A DNA stretch of 31,255 bases from a virus (Duplodnaviria; Heunggongvirae; Uroviricota; Caudoviricetes), in the IMG/VR virus record IMGVR_UViG_3300006201_000009; one strand, given 5' to 3'. Every line of letters starts with the position of its first letter. Position 1 is the first letter of the stretch. The notes beneath the pieces are model-generated. The model saw only the letters and a program-made list of their open reading frames with translations, did no database searches and had not been told where the DNA came from. This document shows positions 3,413 to 24,138 of this stretch, piece after piece. The translations under genes were made by a program, and so were the position numbers.

Positions 3413-4084
3413 ATGAGTGCATCAATTAAAATGGCTAACCGTTATGGCTTGAATTTGAAGCTTACCAATATAACGGACGACACCGATACGATGGTTATCG
3501 ATTTCGCGAACGAAGTCAGCCTTGAAGTAACCGGTGAAATTACGTGGGCTACCGGTGGTCAGGGACACGTAAAAATGATAGGGTTCAAAGACCCGCTTGA
3601 GGGAACGCTGAAGGTTTCCACTCAGGTTACAGATAGCGGTATCATGAATTTGATTTCCGGTCAGAAACTTACCGACGATAGCGGCGTCGCTTCGTTCAAC
3701 GGCAAGATGAAGAAATTCCGTTATTACAAAATCGAGGGCGATACGCTTTGGCAGGACGAGGACGGCAACGTTTACACGGAGAATGTCATCGTTTACAAGG
3801 CTCTCGTAAAACCCAACTACAGTGTTACGTATAACGGTTCGGGAGACCCTGTGAGCATCGATATTGAGTTTGAGCTTGCAGAGGACAAAGAAAAGAACTT
3901 TGTCGATATCAAGCGCGACAAAGACCCCGTTCCCGAGGAATCTACCGAAGGCGGCACGACTACGCCCGATACTCCCGTTCAAGGCGGAGAAGGCGACGGC
4001 AATGAGGGCGGTGCGGATACGCCCAATCCCGATACCGGTGACGAAACGGGTGGAGAAACTGGCGGCGGCACCGAGAATCCATAA
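3413..4084 (+). CDS. major tail (tube) protein with acidic low-complexity C-terminal extension
   Basis: The pattern IDFANEVSLEVTGEITWATGGQG...IGF....EGTLKVSTQV...DPVSIDIEFEL is typical of tail-tube proteins. Strong RBS AAGGAG, upstream of the tape measure gene. Confidence 0.7.
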   Translation: MSASIKMANRYGLNLKLTNITDDTDTMVIDFANEVSLEVTGEITWATGGQGHVKMIGFKDPLEGTLKVSTQVTDSGIMNLISGQKLTDDSGVASFNGKMKKFRYYKIEGDTLWQDEDGNVYTENVIVYKALVKPNYSVTYNGSGDPVSIDIEFELAEDKEKNFVDIKRDKDPVPEESTEGGTTTPDTPVQGGEGDGNEGGADTPNPDTGDETGGETGGGTENP

Positions 4085-4107
4085 ATAAGTATTAGGCATT
4101 TAGAGAA

Positions 4108-4154: not shown

Positions 4155-4658
4155 ATGAATGAAAGGTCAAAATACAATGTAGGCAAAAAAACCTATGAAC
4201 GTACATACGACGGTATTGTGTTTGATAGCGTCGTTGAAATGAAATATTATCGTGATGTAATATTGCCAGCGGTACAAAGTGGGGAAATAACACATTACGA
4301 GATGCAAAAAAAATATATATTGCAACCGCCCTTCATAAGAGATGGTAAGAAAGTTCAGGCTATCGAATATAAGGCGGATTTTTATACAGTGAGTAAAGAC
4401 GGAAAAGAAACCGTTATAGACATCAAAGGGTGTCCTGATAATGTAGCAAAGCTGAAACGAAAAATGTTCTGGTTTACTTATCCAGACCTTGATTATGTTT
4501 GGATAGGGTACTCGAAGATCGACGGGGGATGGACTACATATGAAGCAATTAACGCTGGGCGAAAGCAGCGCAGGAAAGAAAAAGCACAGAAATTAAAGGA
4601 GATCGAGGAATATAATGAAAAAATCAAAAAGCGAAAACAACAACACAGCACAAATTAG
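4155..4658 (+). CDS. DUF1064-like protein (PD-(D/E)xK nuclease-like fold)
   Basis: SKYN...YDGIVFDS..E..YY...QKKYILQP.F......IEYKADF......VIDIKG is the DUF1064 pattern. Confidence 0.75.
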   Translation: MNERSKYNVGKKTYERTYDGIVFDSVVEMKYYRDVILPAVQSGEITHYEMQKKYILQPPFIRDGKKVQAIEYKADFYTVSKDGKETVIDIKGCPDNVAKLKRKMFWFTYPDLDYVWIGYSKIDGGWTTYEAINAGRKQRRKEKAQKLKEIEEYNEKIKKRKQQHSTN

Positions 4659-5220
4659 GGCGCTCGTTGAGGCGACTGCGCCAAGGGTGGGGGAACTTAA
4701 GTATGGCGAAGGCGAGACGGAACTCGTGGTTAAGGTTTACCCTGTTCTGCCGTTTACGAAAAGAATGGAGATGGTGCGGGAAATTGTAGACGGCGTCTTT
4801 ATGGATGAGAAAGACTCCGTAAAAACATACGTACCCGAATATCGTACTCTTCTCGAAAGATATACGGTAATCAAGTTTTTCACCGACTTGACTCTTCCTA
4901 CAAAGTTGGACGATATGTGGCTGGTTTTGAAATATACAACCATTTATGATGATGTTGTCAAACTCGTAGGCGAGGCAGATATAGAGGATATATTCGATGC
5001 GGCGAACAATGCAATCGATACATATAGGCAATATCTTGTCGCCAAGACTGATGTCAACTCGCTCATGAATAAAATAGGCGGCGTACTAAGTGACTTTGAA
5101 GGGAGAGTTCCGCAAGAAGACATTGATGCGATAACCTCTAAAATCAAGGATTTGGCTCCGAATGGTTCGTTGCAGGATATTATAAGTGGTTTATTTGGAA
5201 AAAAGGATGTTCAAGGTTAA
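4615..5220 (+). CDS. hypothetical protein, possible tail assembly chaperone
   Basis: 201-aa mostly helical ORF with RBS GAGGA, between the major tail and tape measure genes. Confidence 0.6.
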   Translation: MKKSKSENNNTAQIRALVEATAPRVGELKYGEGETELVVKVYPVLPFTKRMEMVREIVDGVFMDEKDSVKTYVPEYRTLLERYTVIKFFTDLTLPTKLDDMWLVLKYTTIYDDVVKLVGEADIEDIFDAANNAIDTYRQYLVAKTDVNSLMNKIGGVLSDFEGRVPQEDIDAITSKIKDLAPNGSLQDIISGLFGKKDVQG

Positions 5221-6249: not shown

Positions 6250-9200
6250 ATGGCTGATAATGTAATTGGCATTAAGTTTGGTGTCGCTGGCGGCAAAGGT
6301 TTTCTTGCTGGTTCATCTGGCGCATTGATAAAAGAACAACTTGAATACATAGCAAATCGAATAAAGTTAAAAGTCAACATAAACAAGACCTACTTCAAAA
6401 GCCAATTAACCGCGCTTAAAAAAGAGCTCGATAAAACGCTCGGTGATCTAAATATCAATGTAAGAGCCAATGTTAAGACGGAAGGTCAAGGCGGCTCCTC
6501 TGGCGGCGGTGGCGACAAACAAGAGCAAGTTGCAAGCTACGAATCTGTAACAAAGGCTCTTGAAAGATTATATCAAACAAAGGTTAAATTATTAAAATTG
6601 CCTAAGGCGGATGATGGTAGTTTTTCGTCAGTGGCAGGCGTTAAGGCAAACGCGGATGCAAATAATCTTGACAAACAATTTAGAGAACAGCTTGAAGCCC
6701 TTGAGAAACTTGAGGGCGTGGATAAAGAAAGAGTTCAGTATATCAAAGAATACAGGGAGCAATTAGAACAAGCCTACCAACTTCAAAAGCAGGCGGCGGA
6801 GACTCCTATTCAACAACAAGTACAGATGGCAACACCTACCGATATTGCTAAGTTGCAAAGAATGTCGGCATCTCTTTATGTTGATAATGGTTTCGATGAT
6901 GTTATAGCTCGAAGTAAAGAAGCGAAAAAGCTTGTAGACGAATTTAGTGCGAGTTTGAACGAAGCGCTTAATCAGGGTGGAGGTCAATTAACCAAAGAAA
7001 AGGTTAAGGAACTTAATGCTCAATTCATGCAGACACAAGCACGTCTAAAAGAAATACAGAGAGAAACTGATACGCTTGGAAATAAAATTAAGGAAGCTTT
7101 CGACTCTCGAGTTATTCAACGTATCGCACAAACGCTGTTACTCTTGTTATTACGTGCTTTGAAACAGGTCTACGATAACGTTAAAAAGATAGATGCTGCA
7201 ATGACGGAGCTAAGAATAATTACGGGTGCTACCGCAAAAGAAATGGATGCTGCGGCAAGAAGTATTGCAAAGTCAGCCAAAGAAATAGGTGCAAGCGTTG
7301 TTGATCTCACCAACTCTACAAGCACATATGCGAGACTTGGGTTTGGCTTAGAGGACGCCGAATTACTTGCAAAGAAAACAACTATGTACGCCAACATTTC
7401 TGGTGTTAACGTAGATGAAGCAACGACAAATATTACTGGTATTATTAAAGCTTATAACATCGGCGCGGAAGGTCTTGAAAACGTTTTAGACCAGATGATT
7501 TGGGTCGGCAATAGTTTTGCTATTTCACAAGCAGAAATTGGTGAGGCAATGAATAACGCGGCAAGTGCATTAGCATCAAACGGGAATACGCTTCAAGAGG
7601 CTATTGGTATAGTTACTGCCGCAAATGCGTCATTACAGAATGTAAGCAAATCATCTACGGCAGTTCGTACAATAGCTGCTCGTATTTCTGCCAGCACAGC
7701 TGAATTACAAGAGCTTGGTGAAGATGCAGGCGACATATTATCAACCGCTGATCTCGACAGAAAGATGCGTGCATTTGGTGTATCTATCTCGGGCGCCAAC
7801 GGAGAGCTACGCTCGACATATGCTATACTTGGAGACCTTGCTGCTAAGTGGGGAGACTTTAACGATGCTGAACGGGCTGCTATTGCTGATATGCTTGCTG
7901 GTACAAGGCAGCAAAATGCTTTTTATAGCATAATGCAAAACTGGAACGATGCTGCCAGTGTCGTTGAAAATGCAACCCAAGGTGTTGGGGCATTACAAGA
8001 CGCGCAAGAGATATACATTGACTCCATTGAGGGAAAATCAAATCAGTTAAAGGCGGCGTGGGAAGAGTTTTCAACATCTTTATTAGATAGTGGTATCGTT
8101 AAATTTTTCATAGACTTACTGTCTGTTATAGCAAAAGTTCTAAATGCAATCTTATCTCTCGGCAATGGGTTTATGGCAAATGGCGCAATAATGGCAGCAG
8201 CCGTTATTGGCGTTATCGCTATGATAAACAAGTTAATTCCAGCGTTCAAGAATATGCGCTTACAGTTCAAACTTCTACAAACAGAGCTTGGGGTAACGGC
8301 AACTGGAATAAAAGGGTTTTTCGCAACGGTTGGGACAGCTATTCAGAAATTTTTGGCAAAAAATGCGCCTATCTTAATTATCACAACGATACTTACCTTA
8401 ATGACTTCATTGAGCGGTCAAGCGAGAGGCTGGGCAGAACTAATTGCCGGCGCCGTGGCTCTTATCGCAACGGCAATAATCATTGCTGTAAAGGGAGTTG
8501 ACGCAACCATCAAAGGGTTTATGGCAACCAACCCAATAGGCTGGATTTTACTTGCGATATCTGCTGTTGTCTCCGTAGTAAAAGGCATTTTTGACCTGAT
8601 TGAAGCATTTAATCCTTCATATGAAACACTCAAAGAAGCAGCTAAAGAATCAATTGACGCTTGGAAAGATGCAGAAGACGAGCTTGATGAAGTTAAAGAT
8701 AAACTTGCAGAAATTAACGAACAAATTGATGCGATCAATAAAAAAGATAATATAAGCCTCGTCGATAAAGAGGAGCTTAAATATCTTGAAGAGCAGAAGG
8801 CTAACCTTGAAGCTATCGAGGCAACAAAGGCAGAAGAAGCCAAGAGAGCTAAACAAAAGGCAGCGAGTGATGCTGCGGGTGCTCTTGGAAAATATAATGA
8901 TACACATACGGTTGACGACGCTCCGTGGTGGGAGTGGTTGTTAATTGGACCCTTTGCGTTTATACATCAGGGAATCGCTTGGGGCTCAGACACATACGAA
9001 GAAAAATTCAATGAAATCTTAAAGAATTACCAAAGCGCTTCGCAGGAAGATAAAGATTTTATTACGAGCACACTTAAAGAATACGGTGAAATGCTTGATG
9101 GATTTGAATTTGGTGATAGTGCCGAGCTTGATACATATTTAGCGCAATATTACAGGATGATTGATAGTTACAATCTCCAAACAGGCAATGCTGCGCAGAC

Positions 9201-10611
9201 GTGGAAGAGGGTTCTCGCTGATTCAAGATTTTCGTCAGAAGTGGAGAAACTACAACAACTTGCTGATTCACAAGGCGTATCCATGGACGCTATTACAGCA
9301 GCGGCTCCACAGTTCTTAGACTATTTGAAACAAATAGGTGTATATACGGATGGCGATACAGAGTCTACTAATGCGCTAATTGAAAGCATAAAAGAGTTAA
9401 GAAAGCGTCTTGAGGCTAAAACCAAAATTACATTTACCGATGATATCGATATAATGCAAGACAAATTCGATAGTCTCAACAACGGCTTAAAAGACATTGA
9501 TAAAACTGGCATAATTTCGATGGATAATATTGCCAAAATTATTGATAAAGATGCCGAAGGATATCCTACTCTTCTTGCTAAATACTTCAAATATGTTGAT
9601 GGTATTGGTTACCAATTGGCTGACGAGTGGGCTAATAAAACAAAGTCAGAAATCTTCAATGCTATGGCGCGAGATGAAATACAAGCCTACGCAGACGAAC
9701 TCAGCGAGGCACAAGACATACTTGCCTCAATGGAAGCCGACGACGAGGATTACGCAACAGCAACGAACAATGTTGCAGTCGCCCAGGAAAATCTCAATAC
9801 GAAAATTACGGAGTGGGCAACGTTACTTCGTGAACAAGCAATCGAAGATGAAACCGATAGGTTAAATAAGTTGCAAGATGCGCTTGAAGAGCAGGGCGAC
9901 AAATATAAGGAATTGATTGATATCCGTAAGGATTTACTTGAAACATACAAGGATGAGATCAAATATCAAAAAGAATTGGCGCAGAAGCAGAAGAATGTAG
10001 CAGATTTACAGACGCAACTATCATTGGCTATGCTCGATAAATCTGCTGCTGGTCAATCTAAGGTCAGAGACTTGCAAGAGCAATTAACCGATGCGAGAGA
10101 CGAGTTGGACGAATACACTCTTAACAGGGCGATTGAGGATTTAACAAAGCAGCTTGATGAAGATTACGATGCTTATGAAATATTCCTACAAGAGCAAATC
10201 GATAGGATAATTGATGAAATTGCCAATCTTGCATCGACGTTCAAAATTGATTTTACTCCAAACGATGACGGAAGCTATACCATTAAACAACATCATAGTG
10301 GCGGGTTTGTCGGAGATGTTGCCTCTTTAAGAAGTAATGAAGAATTTGCTAAATTGCTGAAGGGTGAGCTGGTAGTGACATCACAACAAATGGACACATT
10401 TATGAAAAAGACTCTACCGAGTATGCTCGCTTATAACAGTGGTGGCGCTGCAATTATCAACAATAATTCTCCGCTGATAGAAATAAAGTGTGGCGATATT
10501 GATAAGGATTCGATGCCACAATTGAAATCTCTTGTAGATCAAGCTGTTGCAAAGATTGAGAAAAATATGCAAACAGCGTTGGCAAGAACGGGGTACAAGA
10601 AAAAATACTAA
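6250..10611 (+). CDS. tail tape measure protein with TP901-type core
   Basis: 1453-aa helical, Ala-rich protein. Core KIDAAMTELRIITG...YARLGF...VLDQMIWVGNSFAIS..EIGEAM..AASAL...TAVRTIAARI, central hydrophobic segments, C-terminal HHSGGFVG...LLKGELVVT. Confidence 0.92.
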   Translation: MADNVIGIKFGVAGGKGFLAGSSGALIKEQLEYIANRIKLKVNINKTYFKSQLTALKKELDKTLGDLNINVRANVKTEGQGGSSGGGGDKQEQVASYESVTKALERLYQTKVKLLKLPKADDGSFSSVAGVKANADANNLDKQFREQLEALEKLEGVDKERVQYIKEYREQLEQAYQLQKQAAETPIQQQVQMATPTDIAKLQRMSASLYVDNGFDDVIARSKEAKKLVDEFSASLNEALNQGGGQLTKEKVKELNAQFMQTQARLKEIQRETDTLGNKIKEAFDSRVIQRIAQTLLLLLLRALKQVYDNVKKIDAAMTELRIITGATAKEMDAAARSIAKSAKEIGASVVDLTNSTSTYARLGFGLEDAELLAKKTTMYANISGVNVDEATTNITGIIKAYNIGAEGLENVLDQMIWVGNSFAISQAEIGEAMNNAASALASNGNTLQEAIGIVTAANASLQNVSKSSTAVRTIAARISASTAELQELGEDAGDILSTADLDRKMRAFGVSISGANGELRSTYAILGDLAAKWGDFNDAERAAIADMLAGTRQQNAFYSIMQNWNDAASVVENATQGVGALQDAQEIYIDSIEGKSNQLKAAWEEFSTSLLDSGIVKFFIDLLSVIAKVLNAILSLGNGFMANGAIMAAAVIGVIAMINKLIPAFKNMRLQFKLLQTELGVTATGIKGFFATVGTAIQKFLAKNAPILIITTILTLMTSLSGQARGWAELIAGAVALIATAIIIAVKGVDATIKGFMATNPIGWILLAISAVVSVVKGIFDLIEAFNPSYETLKEAAKESIDAWKDAEDELDEVKDKLAEINEQIDAINKKDNISLVDKEELKYLEEQKANLEAIEATKAEEAKRAKQKAASDAAGALGKYNDTHTVDDAPWWEWLLIGPFAFIHQGIAWGSDTYEEKFNEILKNYQSASQEDKDFITSTLKEYGEMLDGFEFGDSAELDTYLAQYYRMIDSYNLQTGNAAQTWKRVLADSRFSSEVEKLQQLADSQGVSMDAITAAAPQFLDYLKQIGVYTDGDTESTNALIESIKELRKRLEAKTKITFTDDIDIMQDKFDSLNNGLKDIDKTGIISMDNIAKIIDKDAEGYPTLLAKYFKYVDGIGYQLADEWANKTKSEIFNAMARDEIQAYADELSEAQDILASMEADDEDYATATNNVAVAQENLNTKITEWATLLREQAIEDETDRLNKLQDALEEQGDKYKELIDIRKDLLETYKDEIKYQKELAQKQKNVADLQTQLSLAMLDKSAAGQSKVRDLQEQLTDARDELDEYTLNRAIEDLTKQLDEDYDAYEIFLQEQIDRIIDEIANLASTFKIDFTPNDDGSYTIKQHHSGGFVGDVASLRSNEEFAKLLKGELVVTSQQMDTFMKKTLPSMLAYNSGGAAIINNNSPLIEIKCGDIDKDSMPQLKSLVDQAVAKIEKNMQTALARTGYKKKY

Positions 10612-10617
10612 TGTTGC

Positions 10618-10644
10618 GAGAGCAGGCTTATGTGGTCTGCTCTC
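10618..10644 (+). other. stem-loop between the tape measure and distal tail genes, no U-tract
   Basis: GAGAGCAGGCT-tatgt-GGTCTGCTCTC (11 bp, two G-U). Confidence 0.6.
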
Positions 10645-10675
10645 TAATATATAAAATTAAAAAGGAGGGCATAAG

Positions 10676-11452
10676 ATGTTAACTGCTACGGAATTTATCT
10701 ACGATGGTGTATGTTCAGCAAAATATGGATTAAAAATTGCAAGCTTTGATGGTTCTGTGCTTGAAGAAACACCATACATTGTGCCAAATATTGCAGTCGC
10801 AAAAGCGGCGGCATCAAAAAAATTTCATTATCTTGACAGGACATACGATAGCCCACCGACATTTGACTTCTCTATTGTTAGCGAGGAAAGTATTCATGAA
10901 GAAATATTGAGAGAAGTGCTAATTTGGCTGGATGCTCGTAGGGGATTTAAGCCGTTCATAGTAATGCAACAAGGGTTCGACGATTTGACTTATAACTGCA
11001 TCTTTACGGTAACAAGTTTAATTTATCACGCAGGATATTGCGTCGGCTTAAACTTATCGGCAACGTTTGACTCTAATTATGTTTTAGGCAAACCTATAGA
11101 GATAATTTTATTTGGCAACGGTGAACCGCAAGATGTTGATTTGTACAACGATTCTGATAATATTGATACTTACATTTTCCCGAAGGTGGAATTCGATACC
11201 TCGGATGGTGCCGTGTCAATTATAAATACAACAGATGACCGCGTGCGAGAATTTGCTTTCTCGGGACTAAACCCTAACACGCAATATGTCGTCGATAATG
11301 AATTAAAAATTATTACAGGTGAGGGCAGAAATTTGCTCGAGAAGTTTACAAAGAATTGGTTACGCATTCTTCGTGGGAAAAACCGTTTGCGAGTTCGTAT
11401 CAATGGAGCTATTACAATCACCTGTCCAAGATATATCAAAATAAGTTTTTAA
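10676..11452 (+). CDS. distal tail protein (Dit)
   Basis: 258 aa directly after the tape measure gene. F.YDG..S..YGL, LYNDSDNIDTYIFPKVEF and WLRILRGKNRL are typical Dit features. Confidence 0.8.
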   Translation: MLTATEFIYDGVCSAKYGLKIASFDGSVLEETPYIVPNIAVAKAAASKKFHYLDRTYDSPPTFDFSIVSEESIHEEILREVLIWLDARRGFKPFIVMQQGFDDLTYNCIFTVTSLIYHAGYCVGLNLSATFDSNYVLGKPIEIILFGNGEPQDVDLYNDSDNIDTYIFPKVEFDTSDGAVSIINTTDDRVREFAFSGLNPNTQYVVDNELKIITGEGRNLLEKFTKNWLRILRGKNRLRVRINGAITITCPRYIKISF

Positions 11453-11470: not shown

Positions 11471-14400
11471 ATGATAAGTAGTTTTGATTACTACAAGAAA
11501 ATTGAGAGCCCGAATATGTACTTGTGTAATCCAGACAAGCGACCTATTTGTGCTTTGAATGCGGAAAATAGGCACTTGATATTACGGTTTAACGATTTAT
11601 CACAGTTGACTTTTACCGTTCCTAAAATTGCTGGTACCGAGGATAATTATGCTTTGGTCGAGTCTAAGCGCTTACTCTTTATCGAAAAAATTGGCTGGTT
11701 TCAAATTGAAAGCGTGCACGAAACTACAAATGGCGAGCAGTGTGAGAAAGAGGTTACAGCACAGTCACATCAATATGCGTTAAAGAATAGAGGGTTCATT
11801 ACAGAAGAAAGAGTTTATATGTTCTATAACCCCAATGACCCTTTTGACGAAAAATATGATAGTGGTAATCTGGCGGCAATGCCGTCCGTAGTTGGACAGC
11901 TTTATCAGCAGGCGGGAATAAAAATTGCCTTGAACACAGCCGATATTGAAGCAACGGAAGATAAAATAGAGTGGACTATAACCTATGTTGACCCCATTCT
12001 TAAATTCAAGGCTAAAAGCTATGGAAAAATGTATGAGTCCGCAGATGGTTATGAAAACGTATGCCGTAGCTTTGAAGCGAATGAAAACCTAAACGGATAC
12101 GATTTTATCATAAATAACGTGGAAGCGGCGTTTGAGGTTATATTTGAGTTTGATTTTCTTTATCACACAATCAAAATTAAAACACTTGACGCGATTACGC
12201 TACCTACAGATATATATCTATCTTTTGACAATATTATAAATAATTTAACGATTAAAGAGAACTCAGAGGATATTGTAACTGTAATGTCCTGTAACGGAGG
12301 CAGCCTTGATATAAGAACCGTTAATCCAATGGGGACAAATTATATCGTTGATTTTGAGTATTATAAAAAAAGAGAAAGCGATGATGGTAAAATAAAATTT
12401 CCTTGGATGTCAGAAGAGCTAATTAACGCACTCGACGAATGGAAAGCAGAGTGGGGTAAATGGAAAGATAGCTATAGCAATCTCGTCACAAGATTACAGG
12501 CTTTGTATGTCGAACAATCAAAGGCTGACGAAGAAATACGAACGTCAAACCTTAAGTTAACCGATATGCAGGCGGCACGCGATCAATATATCAATAATGA
12601 AGATGAAGATATTGAGGGTGCGGGTATTATCACCGGCGAAGTTGTTGCTATTGGTTCAAAAAGCCTAAAACAAGGAACAACATTTTACAACTCTGAATTT
12701 ACCGAAAACTCGGTTATAATTGGCTACACAGAAATGCCAAAGATGACAAAGAGCGACGATGGCATTTATACGTTTTCATTTTTAGCCGATGGCACTCGTG
12801 GAACTGCTAACAGCTTGATACAAAACTACTATGAAGAAGAAAGTGGTTTCGATGGCGTCCCTATACCGATGTATTTTATGGACGGAGATAGCCGTAGCTA
12901 TTGCAAGCTAAATATTGATAGTATTGTTGAGGTCGCAAAAGATAATAATGGCGACCCAATGTATTTCACGCACAAATCTGGTGATGGTTTGGGTGCAAAA
13001 ACTGGCTATATCAGCATAGACGGTACAGAATTTGTCGTATCAAAATCAAGCACCACTGATGTATTCACTATATCTTGTGGTACTTTGTCGGTGAGATTTA
13101 CATCAAATTCGTATTTTGTTTACAACGGAGTACGTTATAGGGTTTTGGCAAGTGCCGACGGTATTGTTTCCTTGTACCGCTACTATGTTTCTGGGTTTGA
13201 TAGATTCACAACATATAAAGAAACCGCCGGTGTTGGCGGTTGGTGTGATATATGGGAAAATTATATAAAGACTACTCTTGCTGCAACTCTTAATGCGATT
13301 AACACACAAATAAATAGTATCACACAGGAAATGAATCGCATAAGCGAAATCTGCAACATCCAAAAGTTTATCAAAAGAAAGGGAGATGGGTTATACGACG
13401 AACTTTCAAACTATTGGATAGAAGGCGAATATACAAACGATAATATCGCTACGCATGATTCGACAACAATGTCAGAACGTATTGATCTCGCTAAAGGGTT
13501 AATGGCGGCGGGAGAAATCGATTTAAGTAAAAGCGCTCAACCGAAATTCGAGATGAGCGTTGATGCAATTAACTTTATAAAGATGTACGAGTTCAGGCAA
13601 TTTACGCAGGAGCTCGTCCTTGGAAAAACAATAACAATCGAAAAATCGGATGGCGTGTACTATCGCCCAGCGTTAATGTCGATTGAGTATGACTTGGATG
13701 TAGCGGATAGCTTCACGATGACATTCTCAAACGCATCGAAGCCTGGCGATACAGCAATGACGTTTGCAGACCTTATTAAGGAGTCGTCTTCAACTTCAAG
13801 GACTGTAGCCGCGAACTGGTCGAACTTGACTGATTATACGCGCAACAAAGAAAGTATTACGAACATGATTGAGGCACCGTTAGACAGAACGTTACGAGCC
13901 GCGCAGGCGAATATGGCATCGCAAGCATTTATAATTGACGATACAGGTATCCTTGGTAGAAAGTATGATACTGATTTTGATGAGTCTAATGGAACATTGT
14001 CGCCAAAGCAATTGCGCATAATGAATAACGTTATAATCTTTACCGATGACAATTGGGAAACCGCGAAGACAGCGCTTGGGGAAATTGTTCTACCTGATGG
14101 TACGGCGTCTTATGGGCTAATAGCGGAAACAATAATTGGCAATATTATTCTTGGTGATAACGTTATCGCATCAAATAACGACGGTAGCGTAACTTTAACC
14201 GGAAATGGAATAGTCATCAAGAACGCATCTGGCGATGTGGTGCTTGAAGCACTTAATAATGGCAATATAACCATCAAGAACTATGCCTCTCAGTCAGACC
14301 TTGACGCGCTTGGAAAGAGGGTTGGCGCGGCTGAAACTTCTATAGAAGCAAATGCTCAAGCCATTACATTAAAAGCCTCTCAGTCAGACCTTGACGCGCT

Positions 14401-19881: not shown

Positions 19882-20919
19882 ATGGCGGGATATACATTAC
19901 AAGGTAAAACCGCGGACGGAACTATGGTGGATGTTCCGTTAGCCGCAACATACGATGCGGCAGGGAATAATATACAACAACATTATGCCGCAAAGACAGA
20001 ATACGAAGCGATAATGGCGAAGCTTGGAACGATGGGTGGTCAACTGGATTTGTTACTTGCTTCGTCGGGTATGGTGTCGTTTGCTGATTGCGATTGGGAA
20101 ACTATCAAAACGATTTCCGAGAGCGGCAAAGCGTCGTCTGCGTTTAAGATTGGCGACGAGAAGCAAATCACTTTTTCTACGGGTGAGAAAATTACGATGG
20201 TCATACTTGGATTTGACCACGATGATTTGTCTGATGGAAGCGGAAAAGCGGGCATAACTCTTGGTATGAAAAACGCATTGGCGACCAACTATATGATGAA
20301 TGCTTCGTCGAAAGACTATGATGGGCAATCTGGTTACAATGCGGGCGGATGGTTAAATTGTGAGATGCGAAATAATACGATGCCGTTATTGCTTAGTTAT
20401 TTACCAGAGGAAGTACGGGCAGTTATTAAAACCGTAAAGAAAAAGACATCGAAGGGTTGTATGTCAAGCGATATGCTCGAAACAGACGATAAACTATTTT
20501 TGTTTTCTCAAGAGGAAGTAATGGGAACCCATATGTACACTACACAGTACCAGAACTCGTTCGCTGGTGAGGGGACTCAATACGACTATTTTAAGGGCGC
20601 AAAAATTCCGGCACCAAAGAGTGGTACGGGCACATTCTCTGTTTTGGATGGTACAGGTTGCTTCTATACTACGGATACAGCCGTTGCTCAAAAGTATGAT
20701 AATAGATTTGGTCAAGAAAAGGGCACATCAAAGAACTATTATTACAATTATAACAATGCAAAGGCGCAAGGGGATAGCGCAACAACTTCGTGCACCTGGT
20801 GGCTTCGCTCTCCGTATTACAATTATAGCAGCAACTTCTGCTGTGTCGGCAGCAGCGGTTACAGCAATCACTACGGTGCCAACCTCAGTTACGGCGTCGC
20901 TTTCGGCTTTTGTATTTAA
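19882..20919 (+). CDS. DGR target protein, putative receptor-binding fibre tip (DUF6273-like, C-type-lectin fold expected)
   Basis: VILGFDHDDL...GGWLNCEMR...LPEEVRAVIKTVKK...DKLFLFSQEEV...WWLRSP...GVAFGFCI*. The VR occupies the 3' end, and the gene is last in the fibre cluster. Confidence 0.88.
   Translation: MAGYTLQGKTADGTMVDVPLAATYDAAGNNIQQHYAAKTEYEAIMAKLGTMGGQLDLLLASSGMVSFADCDWETIKTISESGKASSAFKIGDEKQITFSTGEKITMVILGFDHDDLSDGSGKAGITLGMKNALATNYMMNASSKDYDGQSGYNAGGWLNCEMRNNTMPLLLSYLPEEVRAVIKTVKKKTSKGCMSSDMLETDDKLFLFSQEEVMGTHMYTTQYQNSFAGEGTQYDYFKGAKIPAPKSGTGTFSVLDGTGCFYTTDTAVAQKYDNRFGQEKGTSKNYYYNYNNAKAQGDSATTSCTWWLRSPYYNYSSNFCCVGSSGYSNHYGANLSYGVAFGFCI
20789..20914 (+). repeat. DGR variable repeat (VR)
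   Basis: 126 nt aligning without gaps to 21808-21933 (offset 1019). The 16 mismatches are all opposite TR adenines: 7 A>G, 5 A>T, 4 A>C. Confidence 0.97.
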
Positions 20920-20940
20920 TCTCATATCAAAACAAAGAAA

Positions 20941-20961
20941 TCCGCCACGCAATGTGGCGGA
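20941..20961 (+). promoter_or_regulatory. GC-rich hairpin/cruciform downstream of VR (DGR target-recognition element)
   Basis: TCCGCCAC-gcaat-GTGGCGGA, a perfect 8-bp stem 26 nt after the VR end. No counterpart follows TR. Confidence 0.8.
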
Positions 20962-20987
20962 ATTAAAAATTAACAAGGAGGACAAGT

Positions 20988-21308
20988 ATGGAGCAATTCT
21001 ATTTCAAACCTACGCTCGAACCGCACAACGAAGCAGAGAAGTTAATCTTCGTCGCGGCGAACGGACAAGGGTATATTGCTAACAACGAACTACATATATG
21101 CGGCAACTATCACTTGATATATAAATTTTCGGGCGATAATGTCGGATGGTATATGAAGAACCCTCAAGATAACGTCGATAGATATCTTGGTCTCGGCGCG
21201 AGTCCGTCTGTTCTGATAGGAGATATAGACATCAAAGATAACGAATATTTTGAGGCAATTAAGTATGTTCAACCCGAAAATGAAGATCGGGAAGAAACAG
21301 AAGAATAA
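20988..21308 (+). CDS. hypothetical protein inside the DGR cassette
   Basis: 106 aa with strong RBS AAGGAGG. It fills the gap between the VR hairpin and avd. Confidence 0.75.
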   Translation: MEQFYFKPTLEPHNEAEKLIFVAANGQGYIANNELHICGNYHLIYKFSGDNVGWYMKNPQDNVDRYLGLGASPSVLIGDIDIKDNEYFEAIKYVQPENEDREETEE

Positions 21309-21340
21309 AAAAATAATACTGACACAATAAGGAGATAAAG

Positions 21341-21760
21341 ATGGCGGTACTTAAAAGTAACAGAAATGAATCACAATTACAATTCATAGACACTGCAAGA
21401 CAGTTAGAGATTTTCACCTTACGAAATTGTGTCAAATTTCCTAAACGATATACCTTTTTTATTACTACCGAAATTGTGAGACTATCGCAATCGGTGTACA
21501 ACAATGTCAAAGCAGCAAACAGCGTTTTCCCTTCCGGTGAGCTGGAAATACAGATGCGTAGAGATTATCTCACGAGGGCAAATTGCGATTTGCAATGCTT
21601 AATTTCCCAACTTGATGTTGCGAAAGAAATGTTTGGAGAAGAAGTTAAGTCGAACACTTGGTGTGCTTGGATGGACTTAATCGAAAAAGAAGCCAAACTG
21701 ATTTCCGCAGTAAAGAAAAAAGATAAAGAACGTCTTAAAGAAACTCCAAACGAGTCTTAA
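21341..21760 (+). CDS. avd: DGR accessory variability determinant (Avd-like four-helix bundle)
   Basis: 139 aa, FPKRYTF.I..EI......V..NV.AANS...RRDYLTRANCDLQCLISQLDVA pattern with a basic C-terminus, immediately upstream of TR. Confidence 0.88.
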   Translation: MAVLKSNRNESQLQFIDTARQLEIFTLRNCVKFPKRYTFFITTEIVRLSQSVYNNVKAANSVFPSGELEIQMRRDYLTRANCDLQCLISQLDVAKEMFGEEVKSNTWCAWMDLIEKEAKLISAVKKKDKERLKETPNES

Positions 21761-21807
21761 GGCGATTTTTTATATATAGGTTATGAACCGATTTACATTT
21801 GTCGTGG

Positions 21808-21933
21808 CGTGCAACTGGTGGCTTCGCTCTCCGTATTACAATAATAGCAACAACTTCTGCTATGTCAACAGCAACGGTAACAGCAATAACAACAATGCCA
21901 ACAACAGTAACGGCGTCGCTTTCGGATTTTGTA
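21808..21933 (+). repeat. DGR template repeat (TR)
   Basis: AAC/AAT-rich copy of the VR, with 15 AAY codons in the target frame, between avd and the RT gene. Confidence 0.97.
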
Positions 21934-22148
21934 CGATAATGCCAGACACAGTAATTCCCATAGAGGAACGAAATCAGCGCAAGTACAAAAGGGGTTTATG
22001 ACCTTTCCGCAAGGATAAATGAATATTTTGATGTGGTCTACCGGACGCTTCTTGCATTGCGCGTGATTGTGGTAGCGCGTTTAATGGTAGGTATCACTAT
22101 GCAGTTATTTTCCCACAATGATTTCACTGTACAAGGTATATAATTTTT
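21934..22148 (+). ncRNA. TR-RT spacer, probable structured 3' part of the DGR template RNA
   Basis: 215-nt intergenic region with small hairpins, e.g. TCC-GCAA-GGA at 22006-22015 and GGGGT-ttatg-ACCTT just before it. The role is inferred from the BPP-1 DGR spacer. Confidence 0.45.
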
Positions 22149-23267
22149 ATGAATAGCAAGGAAAGACATGAATTAAGGTATCAGAGACGCAAACAAAGAC
22201 GTCTCGAGAAGAAAAGGAAATTTGATGAAATTTATTGTGATTACGATAAAGTTTTCACGTTTGATAACTTGTATCACAGTTACAAACAATGTTGCAAAGG
22301 GGTGGGCTGGAAATCCAGCACCCACAAATACAGAACGAATGCTCTGCTCAACGTAAATTCTACATATAAAATGTTGCGTGACGGAACATTCAAAAGCAAA
22401 GGATTTTATGAGTTTAATATAATCGAACGAGGCAAGGCAAGACATATACAAAGCGTTCATATTAGTGAGCGAGTTGTTCAACGGTGCCTATGCGATTACA
22501 GTCTTGTTCCGATTTTGAAGCGTTCTTTTATCTATGATAACGGAGCTTGCATTAAACTTCGCGGAATAGACTTTGCACTTAACCGAATGAACAGACATTT
22601 GGAAAAGTATTATAGACAACACGGCAGCGAGGGTTACGCCCTCGTTTTTGATTTCTCGAAATACTTTAACAGCATTAACCACGTTGCGCTGTTGAAAATT
22701 TTGCGCGAGAAAATCACGGACGATAGGTTGTATGCTATCGTCAAACAACTTGTTGACGACTTCGGCGAGAACGGACTTGGGTTAGGTAGTCAAATATCGC
22801 AGAGTTGCGCGTTAGCTCTCCCAAATAAAATGGATCACTATATAAAGGAAGATTTAGGTATTAAGTATTACTGTCGTTATATGGACGATGGATGCTTAAT
22901 ACACCACGACAAAGAACACTTAAAATACTGTCTGCAAAAGATTACGGAGATTTGTACCGAACTTGGTATAAAGCTAAATCCAAAGAAAACCCAGATAATT
23001 AAATTAAGTCGTGGTATCAATTTTCTCAAAACACATTTCATTTTAACGAAAACGGGAAAGATAATACGCAAGCCGCACAAGAAAAATATTACGCTTATGC
23101 GCAGAAAACTTAAAAAGTTCAAGCGTTGGGTTGAAGAGGGTAAGATGACATTTGAAGATGTTACGACATCGTGGTGTTCGTGGCGTGGTCATCAGCTCAA
23201 ATTTAACTCATATTGGGCAAGGCAAAGAATACACGACCTTTATGTGCGATTATTCTATTGGTCGTAA
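22149..23267 (+). CDS. DGR reverse transcriptase
   Basis: 372 aa with ERGKAR.I, DFSKYFNSINH, GLGLGSQISQ (the DGR-type LGxxxSQ) and catalytic YMDD. No maturase or endonuclease domain. Confidence 0.96.
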   Translation: MNSKERHELRYQRRKQRRLEKKRKFDEIYCDYDKVFTFDNLYHSYKQCCKGVGWKSSTHKYRTNALLNVNSTYKMLRDGTFKSKGFYEFNIIERGKARHIQSVHISERVVQRCLCDYSLVPILKRSFIYDNGACIKLRGIDFALNRMNRHLEKYYRQHGSEGYALVFDFSKYFNSINHVALLKILREKITDDRLYAIVKQLVDDFGENGLGLGSQISQSCALALPNKMDHYIKEDLGIKYYCRYMDDGCLIHHDKEHLKYCLQKITEICTELGIKLNPKKTQIIKLSRGINFLKTHFILTKTGKIIRKPHKKNITLMRRKLKKFKRWVEEGKMTFEDVTTSWCSWRGHQLKFNSYWARQRIHDLYVRLFYWS

Positions 23268-23275
23268 ACAGAAAC

Positions 23276-23305
23276 AGCGAGTGCCGCCTTGGGTACTCGC
23301 TTTAT
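23276..23305 (+). terminator. terminator-like hairpin after the RT gene
   Basis: AGCGAGTGCC-gccttg-GGTACTCGCT (10 bp, one G-U) followed by TTAT. Confidence 0.55.
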
Positions 23306-23321: not shown

Positions 23322-23726
23322 ATGGATTGGCAAGCAATTTTACTTTCAATCATCGGCATCGTTTTGACTGCTTTGGTGAGCTGGGGTGCAGAACGCCTTA
23401 TTGCGTTAATTAACTCCAAACTGGCTAATAGCAAATATGCAAAGTATCTCACAAGTGCGGTAGACGTGATTACACGCGCCGTCAAAACCACATATCAAAC
23501 TTACGTGCAATCGTTGAAAGACAAGAATATGTTTACAGCAGAAGCGCAAAAAGAAGCACTATCGAAAGCTGGTGAAATGGCATTGGCGCAGCTGACGGAT
23601 GACTCGAAGAAATGGATTGAGAGCAACTTCGGTGATATTAAGACGTGGATTTCTAACACAATTGAGTCTGTTATCTACGACTTGAAGAATAAGACCATAA
23701 GCGAGAGCACAAATGAAAACGCTTAA
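23322..23726 (+). CDS. holin, LL-H-like
   Basis: 134 aa with RBS GGAGG. One N-terminal TM (ILLSIIGIVLTALVSWG), then AVKTTYQTYV..LK...FT.EAQKEAL...WI...IESVI, at the end of the tail operon. Confidence 0.7.
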   Translation: MDWQAILLSIIGIVLTALVSWGAERLIALINSKLANSKYAKYLTSAVDVITRAVKTTYQTYVQSLKDKNMFTAEAQKEALSKAGEMALAQLTDDSKKWIESNFGDIKTWISNTIESVIYDLKNKTISESTNENA

Positions 23727-24138
23727 AGCTATTGGATTTTGGGTGGCATCCTTTACGTGGGGGCTGCCGATGACATTGGTGGGCTGCCTTGTTGCTATCG
23801 CATTGATGGTGACGGGGCACAAGCCTCATAGGTTTCATTATTTCATATATTTTGAAGTAGGAGAGAATTGGGGCGGCTTTGAGTGTGGGTGCTTCTTCGT
23901 AACTAACAAGAACCCGACTTATAGTATCAGACGCCACGAGAGCGGGCACGGCTTACAGAACATAATGCTGGGCGTATTTATGCCGTTCTTGGTAAGCATA
24001 CCGTCTTGTATTCGATATTGGTACCGAGAGATAGTTGTACGGAGCGGTAAAAAGACGTATCACGAATTGCCAGATTACGACAGTATTTGGTTTGAGGGTT
24101 GGGCTACGCGGCTCGGAGATAAGTATTTTAATGAATAA
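23713..24138 (+). CDS. membrane protein with HExxH zinc-metallopeptidase-like motif
   Basis: 141 aa. N-terminal TM (FWVASFTWGLPMTLVGCLVAIALMV), RHESGHGLQ, a second hydrophobic stretch, then WFEGWA. Overlaps the holin end by 14 nt. Confidence 0.7.
   Translation: MKTLKAIGFWVASFTWGLPMTLVGCLVAIALMVTGHKPHRFHYFIYFEVGENWGGFECGCFFVTNKNPTYSIRRHESGHGLQNIMLGVFMPFLVSIPSCIRYWYREIVVRSGKKTYHELPDYDSIWFEGWATRLGDKYFNE

Follow-up and report, generated by a model that had tools for sequence, protein, structure and literature searches.

A canonical, apparently active diversity-generating retroelement among the late genes of a large, temperate SPbeta-like phage from an uncultured Christensenella-like gut lineage

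Described relatives and anatomy of the cassette

The prototype diversity-generating retroelement (DGR), that of Bordetella phage BPP-1 (mtd-avd-TR-brt), consists in order of a target gene with a C-terminal variable repeat (VR), avd, the template repeat (TR) and a reverse transcriptase (RT) gene. The locus described here has the same order and shares with BPP-1 adenine-only mutagenesis, a GC-rich IMH-like end with a fixed TR/VR difference, a GC-rich hairpin 3' of the VR, a structured RNA 3' of the TR and what is probably a comparable C-type-lectin-like variable domain, but its target differs from BPP-1 Mtd in having no Mtd_N domain. Also among the closest known systems are Treponema denticola TvpA (PDB 2y3c), the C-terminal domain of Legionella Lcl (DUF1566, PDB 8q4e) and the DGRs of the Faecalibacterium prophages Lelie and CP11 (PMC11792537) and of the nd4 and nd12 phages of the 'tentaclin' paper (PMC10743442). 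From these last two pairs the present element differs in its Christensenellaceae-like host and SPbeta-like phage (Lelie and CP11 being set apart by their description), and very probably in a small target, Cys-rich at its N-terminus and encoded in the opposite gene arm next to the genes for a retron-type RT and RNase H. DGRs are a known class, as the original prediction had said, and those with DUF6273 targets, two-target ones included, have already been published; the present element thus belongs to a well-described kind of system and leaves the general understanding of DGRs unchanged. What is new here is the RT-2 spacer, the fixed position 119, the DUF6273 fold, the host and phage lineage, the remote VR2 and a conserved 106-aa gene, in a well-documented, naturally active DGR from the phages of Christensenellaceae, a gut family linked to health for which very few phages are known.

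We analysed a 31,255-nucleotide stretch of viral DNA (hereafter the window) and conclude, with a probability of roughly 90%, that a large, temperate SPbeta-like phage or prophage of uncultured gut bacteria resembling Christensenella carries here, in its late operon, a canonical, currently active DGR, for which we propose a two-target mechanism. The phage was classed as SPbeta-like because YonV, YonJ and YonG domains are present. The RT is 95% and 93% identical to copies in two 'uncultured Christensenella sp.' MAG contigs (260 and 492 kb), which on sequence grounds places the host in an uncultured Christensenella-like gut lineage. In a blastn search of the 'phages' collection, the only match was one of 115 nt in an unannotated faecal phage record.

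The locus had been predicted to be a complete DGR with all parts intact and co-oriented, which was borne out by the ORFs, motifs, repeat pair and hairpin: every feature lies on the + strand, and the target, Avd and RT ORFs are without stops. Target gene 1 (19882..20919; 345 aa) encodes a ~65-aa N-terminal region of no known family followed by a DUF6273 C-type-lectin-like domain, and its 3' part is VR1 (20789..20914), coding for target residues 303-345. The IMH-like VR 3' end (20893..20932) is followed by an inverted repeat able to form a hairpin or cruciform (20941..20961; 8-bp GC-rich stem, 5-nt loop), a 106-aa gene whose product has an acidic C-terminal tail (20988..21308), the accessory variability determinant gene avd (21341..21760; 139 aa), the TR (21808..21933), the RT-2 RNA, which spans from the TR to the RT start (21937..22159), and the RT gene itself (22149..23267; 372 aa). 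Between the RT and holin genes lies a terminator-like hairpin (23276..23301), called by consensus scan only. An ORF at 21783-22001, where the JGI gene call is a 120-aa 'DUF6273' protein, overlaps the TR and is a by-product of TR homology.

The RT carries the DGR-type motifs LGSQISQ (residues 212-218) and YMDD (residues 244-247) and matches Pfam RVT_1 (E = 6.8e-18) and PHROG 1423 (E = 4.9e-87). Its best relative of known structure is 8ub7_A (E = 3.4e-23), a reverse transcriptase of 328 aa that, from this length and the entry series, we take to be the bRT of Handa et al. Avd matches PHROG 3206 ('Avd protein of DGR'; E = 2.2e-8) over residues 2-136, almost its full length, and has a weak Pfam match to PF05635 (E = 0.08, under the family cut-off) and no sequence match in the PDB. 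The 106-aa protein, which has no Pfam, PHROG or NCBIfam match, belongs to a small family (12 clusters at at least 66% identity) that always occurs on contigs that also carry target homologues; the gene is absent from L008-L010, RT relatives at 53% identity. Low pN/pS values for the RT (0.05-0.07), Avd (0.08) and the 106-aa gene (0.08-0.10, against three relatives) indicate purifying selection on all three (0.05-0.10 overall). More speculatively, the 106-aa product could be an undescribed DGR helper or target-specific helper.

The diversified target and its likely role

Target 1 has a DUF6273 C-type-lectin-like fold: PF19789 scores 66 bits on it (cut-off 23.5), and nearly all of its 832 homologues carry the same domain. 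The lectin fold surfaced only with an exhaustive structural aligner; a Foldseek search of the PDB returned no Mtd or TvpA match and a single borderline one (9qa6, E = 1e-3), and the best match among solved structures is not to a phage fibre but to a domain from a bacterial IgA peptidase. The gene closes the tail module, with the lysis genes immediately after it, and matches in BFVD include 'tail-collar fiber' and 'receptor binding protein' entries. We consider target 1 most likely to be a virion-borne ligand or receptor binder. The more specific prediction of a tail-fibre tip is plausible from the gene's position at the end of the tail module; residues 1-70 gave no match to Mtd_N (PF18454) or any other Pfam family at E up to 1. 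More distant homologues (P0056 and P0062) do carry Mtd_N.

This N-terminus, with its 65 aa free of Mtd_N or any other tail-attachment domain, also favours an alternative that we regard as unlikely but worth weighing, namely that the DGR is active and target 1 is an accessory adhesin or decoration (binding mucus, glycans or non-host surfaces) rather than the receptor-binding tip, so that the element tunes environmental adherence and not host tropism. The IgA peptidase match points the same way, as do the occurrence of DUF6273 in homologues coupled to either Mtd_N or a phi29-type head-fibre N-domain (P0055), a PHROG match to a 'Hoc-like head decoration' family (one match, E = 4.7e-6) and the presence of other possible primary receptor binders (a 1434-aa Tal with a Peptidase_S74 chaperone domain, a BppU_N-like protein and a 276-aa 'tail fiber'-type protein). 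The position of the gene at the end of the tail module and the BFVD matches argue instead for a receptor-binding role, as does the tail-borne location of most characterised phage DGR targets (PMC10743442). A virion-borne ligand or receptor binder remains our preferred reading of target 1.

Natural variation, homing signals and the DGR RNA

The window contains one 126-nt direct repeat pair, VR (20789-20914) and TR (21808-21933), with 87% identity according to the repeat finder. The two copies mismatch at 16 of the 126 positions, every one of them at a TR adenine (39 in the TR; hypergeometric probability of all 16 falling on A by chance, about 5e-10), and relative to the TR the VR shows seven A>G, five A>T and four A>C changes, 15 of the 16 at codon positions 1 or 2 of the target frame. 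The original prediction had read all 16 as the signature of mutagenesis; their number and positions hold, with the exception that at TR position 119 the TR/VR difference is fixed rather than produced by mutagenesis, because C is present in every VR examined (all six VR1 copies and the VR2 copies described below) and A in all TRs. With this site set aside, 15 of 38 adenines are mutagenised.

Activity was judged on contig-level natural copies from different samples. Between the window and a near-identical IMG/VR record (G000), all 21 differences across 3,126 nt fall in the VR and all at TR adenines, and VR turnover is thus faster than any ordinary mutation, with the remaining 3,000 aligned bases identical. 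Among the 14 proteins in the target's 90% cluster, 0-4 residues differ over the first 302 aa and 1-15 in the VR part, and the codons that vary among them comprise 20 of the 22 with a TR adenine at position 1 or 2 and none of the 19 without. Across six natural TR/VR DNA pairs, 130 of 133 mismatches are at TR adenines. The window and L005 have target bodies that are 73-79% identical, and their VRs agree at 86 of 87 non-A sites and at 18 of 39 A sites. The window, G000, L005 and L020 share one identical TR and have different VRs, and TR substitutions particular to a lineage were found in the cognate VRs (T23A and G26C in L006, G64A in L012, A67C and C68G in L013), so that in these natural copies information passes in one direction, from an invariant TR to the VR. 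The predicted pattern of variation at TR adenines beside a constant TR was thus seen in natural copies, and from this restriction, together with the recurrence of TR substitutions in cognate VRs, we conclude that the element is active. It is highly improbable that this genome's own copy is silent or decayed and that its VR diversity came from ancestors, relatives or strain recombination: the diversity is known here from contigs, and L005 shows target genes and cassettes exchanged or mis-joined between strains, but every part is intact and shows purifying selection, all 21 differences between the window and G000 lie in the VR and none in the remaining 3,000 aligned bases, and recombination would not limit differences to TR-A sites.

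At the 3' end of the VR, a GC-rich 14-mer (20893-20906) precedes the fixed C at 20907 (TR position 119; A in the TR) and a post-VR motif of ~18 nt (20915-20932), which is common to VR1 and the remote VR2 and absent after the TR; more generally, VR1 and VR2 have similar downstream flanks, to which that of the TR is unrelated. The hairpin at 20941-20961 (dG -10.4 kcal/mol folded as DNA; z = -4.4) has an invariant stem and a variable loop among relatives, with no T-run after it on the + strand. The VR2 hairpin has another sequence (6-bp stem, 4-nt loop; z = -3.5) at the same relative place, and the same fold analysis found no hairpin 3' of the TR. The GC-rich end, fixed A/C difference and hairpins correspond to the IMH features of DGRs and may act in homing, and the occurrence of different hairpin sequences at the same relative position of two VRs offers natural support for a structure-based homing signal.

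The segment between the TR and the RT gene matches the Rfam RT-2 RNA (RF03077) over the complete model (1-222 of 222; cmscan, 129.9 bits against a gathering score of 40), directly upstream of the RT start and overlapping it, and the same family occupies the same place in L005, L006 and L008-L010. From this location between the TR and RT, and from the BPP-1 ribonucleoprotein structure (Handa et al., bioRxiv 10.1101/2023.10.23.563531), which is the source for the role of the spacer RNA, we infer by analogy that the RT-2 region is probably the spacer part of the DGR RNA, binding RT-Avd and priming cDNA synthesis. Rfam lists RF03077 as an sRNA, the DGR role being proposed here, and literature searches pairing 'RT-2' with DGR terms returned nothing; this orphan motif would thereby become linked to the DGR RNA of a Bacillota phage clade. 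Constrained MFE folding also predicted a duplex of sequences upstream of the TR with the 3' end of the RT-2 region in the window and L009, which was judged too weak to claim, with only 9 pairs in L013.

Under the mechanism that we propose, an RNA spanning the TR and the downstream RT-2 structure would be bound by the RT-Avd complex, cDNA would be synthesised with random misincorporation opposite template adenines, and this cDNA would replace the VR, guided by the GC-rich IMH-like end and the downstream hairpin. The TR holds 15 AAY codons and no reachable stop codon, and up to 22 codons might be rewritten on the DUF6273 lectin-like surface (~10^22 possible proteins).

A probable second, remote target

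The search for further VRs that had been suggested gave a divided result. No other VR was found with the TR in the 48-kb G000 record, which stops short of the expected VR2 region. In relatives and in one contig of the same strain there is a second VR, far from the first, in the gene for a 240-aa protein next to those for a retron-type RT and RNase H. The VR2 copies of L049 and L050 show 17 differences from the window's TR, every one of them at an A and none at a non-A position, and the L050 sample also holds a contig 99.975% identical to the present phage. Very probably this exact genome, too, contains a VR2 fed by the one TR, ~50 kb distant in the opposite gene arm. The other contigs of the lineage all break at a GC-rich island upstream. 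A further candidate for a second target on the same contig (P0195 / L022) was dropped, being part of another phage and having a VR-like end incompatible with this TR.

The N-terminus of target 2 is Cys-rich and zinc-ribbon-like; the protein also contains a DUF6273 domain and has no signal peptide. Its gene lies in an early/accessory arm, immediately after those for the retron-type RT and RNase H and adjacent to a ubiquitin-like conjugation operon. A tentative and rather doubtful extension of these observations is that one template diversifies two functionally different proteins, a virion lectin-fold binder and a small non-structural, probably cytoplasmic protein. Should target 2 work intracellularly, say as a hypervariable protein that binds those of host defence or of rival phages, the phage would possess an adaptive counter-defence component resembling an antibody. 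The lineage also provides a compact two-target system with one target outside the structural genes, which could serve to test non-adsorption functions of phage DGRs.

Adenine-specific diversification among natural copies

Between 18000 and 25000, a repeat finder recovered a single long direct repeat (126 nt, 87% identity), composed of the variable repeat (VR; 20789-20914) and, downstream, the template repeat (TR; 21808-21933) of a diversity-generating retroelement (DGR). Compared base by base, the two copies differed at 16 sites, 16 of 16 on TR adenines (39 A in total; 7 A>G, 5 A>T and 4 A>C; hypergeometric P = 5 × 10−10 for 16 random mismatches all landing on A), the mismatch and adenine counts being exactly those of the original prediction, and 15 of these mismatches hit codon position 1 or 2 of ORF 19882-20919. 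The TR holds 22 variable codons (15 AAY, 3 TAY and 4 AGY), a capacity of approximately 10^21.9 possible proteins with no reachable stop codon; three AGC serines were constant across 14 target variants, suggesting selection for scaffold residues. The TR and part of the adjoining RNA (21783-22001; also 11902-12262 of the related contig L020) are open in the target frame, and the JGI gene caller recorded the TR-spanning ORF as a 'DUF6273' protein of 120 aa; this annotation is an artefact that stems from TR homology, and the ORF is not a real gene.

Activity was judged from natural copies, by contig-level comparison with the near-identical IMG/VR record G000, with related loci and with protein variants. 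G000 differed from the window at 21 of 3,126 aligned bases, all 21 in the VR at TR adenines, the other 3,000 bases being identical; L020, from another sample, was 100% identical over 21 kb, VR included. Across a 90%-identity target cluster (14 distinct proteins, drawn from assemblies of JGI, ENA and Logan), variants had 0-4 residue differences in the first 302 aa versus 1-15 in the last 43. Variation touched 20 of the 22 TR codons that have A in position 1 or 2, compared with 0 of the 19 that do not. TR-A sites accounted for 130 of the 133 mismatches over six TR/VR pairs (the window, G000, L005, L006, L012 and the Christensenella locus L013). Although the window and L005 share only 73-79% identity in their target bodies, their VRs matched at 86 of 87 non-A sites (18 of 39 at A sites), which shows continual homogenization of the VR scaffold by the TR. 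In addition, private TR substitutions recurred in the cognate VR (L006, T23A and G26C; L012, G64A; L013, A67C and C68G), which is, on this sequence evidence, directional TR-to-VR transfer. At the contig level, these natural copies thus revealed neither an invariant VR nor variation off the adenines, the two observations named beforehand as counting against the prediction; the DGR reading is supported, with activity shown at that level.

Cassette genes and a candidate spacer RNA

The first target (19882-20919; 345 aa) matched Pfam DUF6273 (E = 4.9 × 10−18), and is followed by Avd (21341-21760; 139 aa; PHROG 3206 'Avd protein of DGR', E = 2.2 × 10−8; a weak match to Pfam PF05635, E = 0.08) and by a reverse transcriptase (RT; 22149-23267; 372 aa; RVT_1; PHROG 1423, E = 4.9 × 10−87) with LGSQISQ and YMDD motifs. 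The closest solved relative of the RT was a 328-aa reverse transcriptase (entries 8ub7-8ube, E = 3.4 × 10−23), which, from its length and entry series, we take to be the Bordetella bRT.

The spacer between the TR and the RT start codon (21937-22159) matched Rfam RT-2 RNA (RF03077) over its full length (129.9 bits; gathering score 40), and RT-2 RNA is found in the corresponding position in relatives L005, L006 and L008-L010. In Bordetella phage BPP-1, RNA flanking the TR wraps RT-Avd and primes cDNA synthesis, and, of 278 DGRs containing Avd, 207 are predicted to have comparable stem-loops just 3′ of the TR (bioRxiv 10.1101/2023.10.23.563531). Because of these parallels and its position between TR and RT, we infer that RT-2 RNA would be the DGR spacer RNA of this clade. 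Constrained minimum-free-energy folding with the TR single-stranded also paired 21754-21807, upstream of the TR, with 22128-22167, at the 3′ end of the RT-2 region (approximately 28 pairs in the window, 27 in the divergent L009 and only 9 in L013), a predicted duplex that resembles the upstream-downstream 'cPRT Stop' duplex of BPP-1.

An extra gene (20988-21308; 106 aa, with an acidic C-terminal tail) lies between the VR hairpin and avd; it had no family match in Pfam, PHROG or the other libraries searched, and is under purifying selection (pN/pS 0.08-0.10, compared with 0.08 for Avd and 0.05-0.07 for the RT). Because the family has few members (12 clusters at ≥66% identity, on contigs carrying target homologues) and RT relatives at 53% identity do not have it (there, avd directly follows the target), the gene is lineage-specific and no general DGR component. 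Its product might serve as a target-specific chaperone or assist the DGR.

Two DUF6273 targets

An AF2 model of target 1, built from 30 homologues (pLDDT 88, pTM 0.81), revealed a confident globular domain (residues 66-345) behind a less confident region of two strands and a long helix (residues 1-65). Foldseek returned only one borderline match in the PDB. Numerous phage DUF6273 proteins came up in BFVD, some of them annotated as tail-collar fibre or receptor-binding protein. The model aligned with PDB 9qa6_A residues 32-282, suggesting that this protease may carry a DUF6273-type binding domain. The target gene closes the tail module. Before it come the tape measure (6250-10611), a DUF6558 protein resembling Dit, a Tal of 1434 aa with Peptidase_S74, a BppU_N-like protein of 445 aa and a 276-aa protein whose PHROG matches include 'tail fiber'; after it come the DGR cassette and then a holin. 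In homologues, this domain is joined to Mtd_N or to an N-domain of the phi29 head-fibre type. Given this position, the BFVD names and the homologue N-domains, target 1 is likely to be a virion-borne binder. The more specific original prediction, a tail-fibre tip controlling receptor tropism, remains plausible from the end-of-module position and is partly supported. A profile search found no family match for the N-terminal part.

Relatives of the RT, 95% and 93% identical to it, are embedded in contigs of 260 kb and 492 kb that belong to two metagenome-assembled genomes (MAGs) labelled 'uncultured Christensenella sp.' Searching both MAGs with the TR recovered, besides the TR and the target 1 VR (VR1), one further copy on another contig in each (VR2), at the 3′ end of a 239-aa gene, matching TR positions 11-126 with mismatches only at TR-A; position 119 is C, and the TR markers of the cognate lineage are present. 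The encoded protein has a Cys-rich CxxC...CxxC N-terminus of approximately 30 aa (no confident model) and then a DUF6273 domain; its gene comes after those for a 382-aa retron-type RT and an RNase H, and 22 near-identical variants differed almost only in the VR part. JGI contigs L049 and L050 carry a 240-aa version, whose VR2 showed 17 differences from the window TR, all at A and 0 at non-A sites, and the L050 sample also contains a contig 99.975% identical to this phage. From these related contigs, VR2 is very probably present in this exact genome. An intracellular role for the second target is a possible, if unlikely, reading. One TR and two VRs also occur in the 53%-identity RT relatives L008-L010 (in L009, at 3983-4107, 4640-4768 and 10560-10677), the second VR approximately 6 kb downstream within another DUF6273 protein, so two-target layouts recur in this RT clade with different geometry.

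Gut-phage DGRs with DUF6273 targets have been published, the domain being described as C-lectin-like (PMC10743442). As in this phage lineage, one TR serves a large and a small DUF6273 target in Faecalibacterium phages Lelie and CP11, where activity was shown by the same sort of genome comparison (PMC11792537). The kind of element is already known; specific here are the lineage of the host, the connection of RT-2 RNA with a DGR, the conserved 106-aa gene, and the location and N-terminus of the second target.

Homing signals and genomic surroundings

At TR position 119 (window 20907), all TRs carry A, and all VRs examined, namely six copies of VR1 and those of VR2, carry C; this position was rejected as a mutagenized site, being a fixed TR/VR difference of the IMH/IMH* type. 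A GC-rich 14-mer (20893-20906) directly precedes it, and approximately 18 nt after the VR are common to VR1 and the remote VR2, whereas the sequence after the TR is unrelated. A hairpin follows VR1 (20941-20961; −10.4 kcal/mol folded as DNA, z = −4.4), and relatives share its stem without change but differ in the loop; VR2 has a different stem sequence in the same relative place (z = −3.5), and a fold scan found no hairpin at the corresponding place after the TR. Two unrelated stems at one position would amount to natural covariation favouring a structural homing signal, a role described for the BPP-1 hairpin; the downstream hairpin and the RNA flanking the TR are both likenesses to that phage.

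In L005 (IMGVR_UViG_3300006145_000271; 4.3 kb), a 79-nt segment of VR end, IMH and hairpin (1010-1200, corresponding to window 20899-20977) is tandemly duplicated. On the upstream side, the target gene shares 97.8% identity with its L013 counterpart and the VR carries the L013 TR marker; on the downstream side, the cassette matches the window at 99.6% identity. Either L005 arose by natural recombination, with an exchange of target and cassette at the IMH, or two strains occurring together were joined into a chimera during assembly.

YonV, YonJ and YonG domains encoded upstream mark the phage as SPbeta-like, and a limited literature search found no published description of a Christensenella phage DGR. 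After the cassette, 23322-24138 holds the holin (PHROG 13712, E = 1.3 × 10−28) and an overlapping 141-aa ORF without a family match; no endolysin was recognizable between the DGR and the minus-strand nucleotide-metabolism genes. Independent contigs of the phage all end at G000:C1:1-1600, approximately 15-17 kb before the window start and within approximately 2-4 kb upstream of the YonV-like gene, at a GC-rich, strand-skewed island, probably a repeat that breaks assemblies or else a genome terminus.
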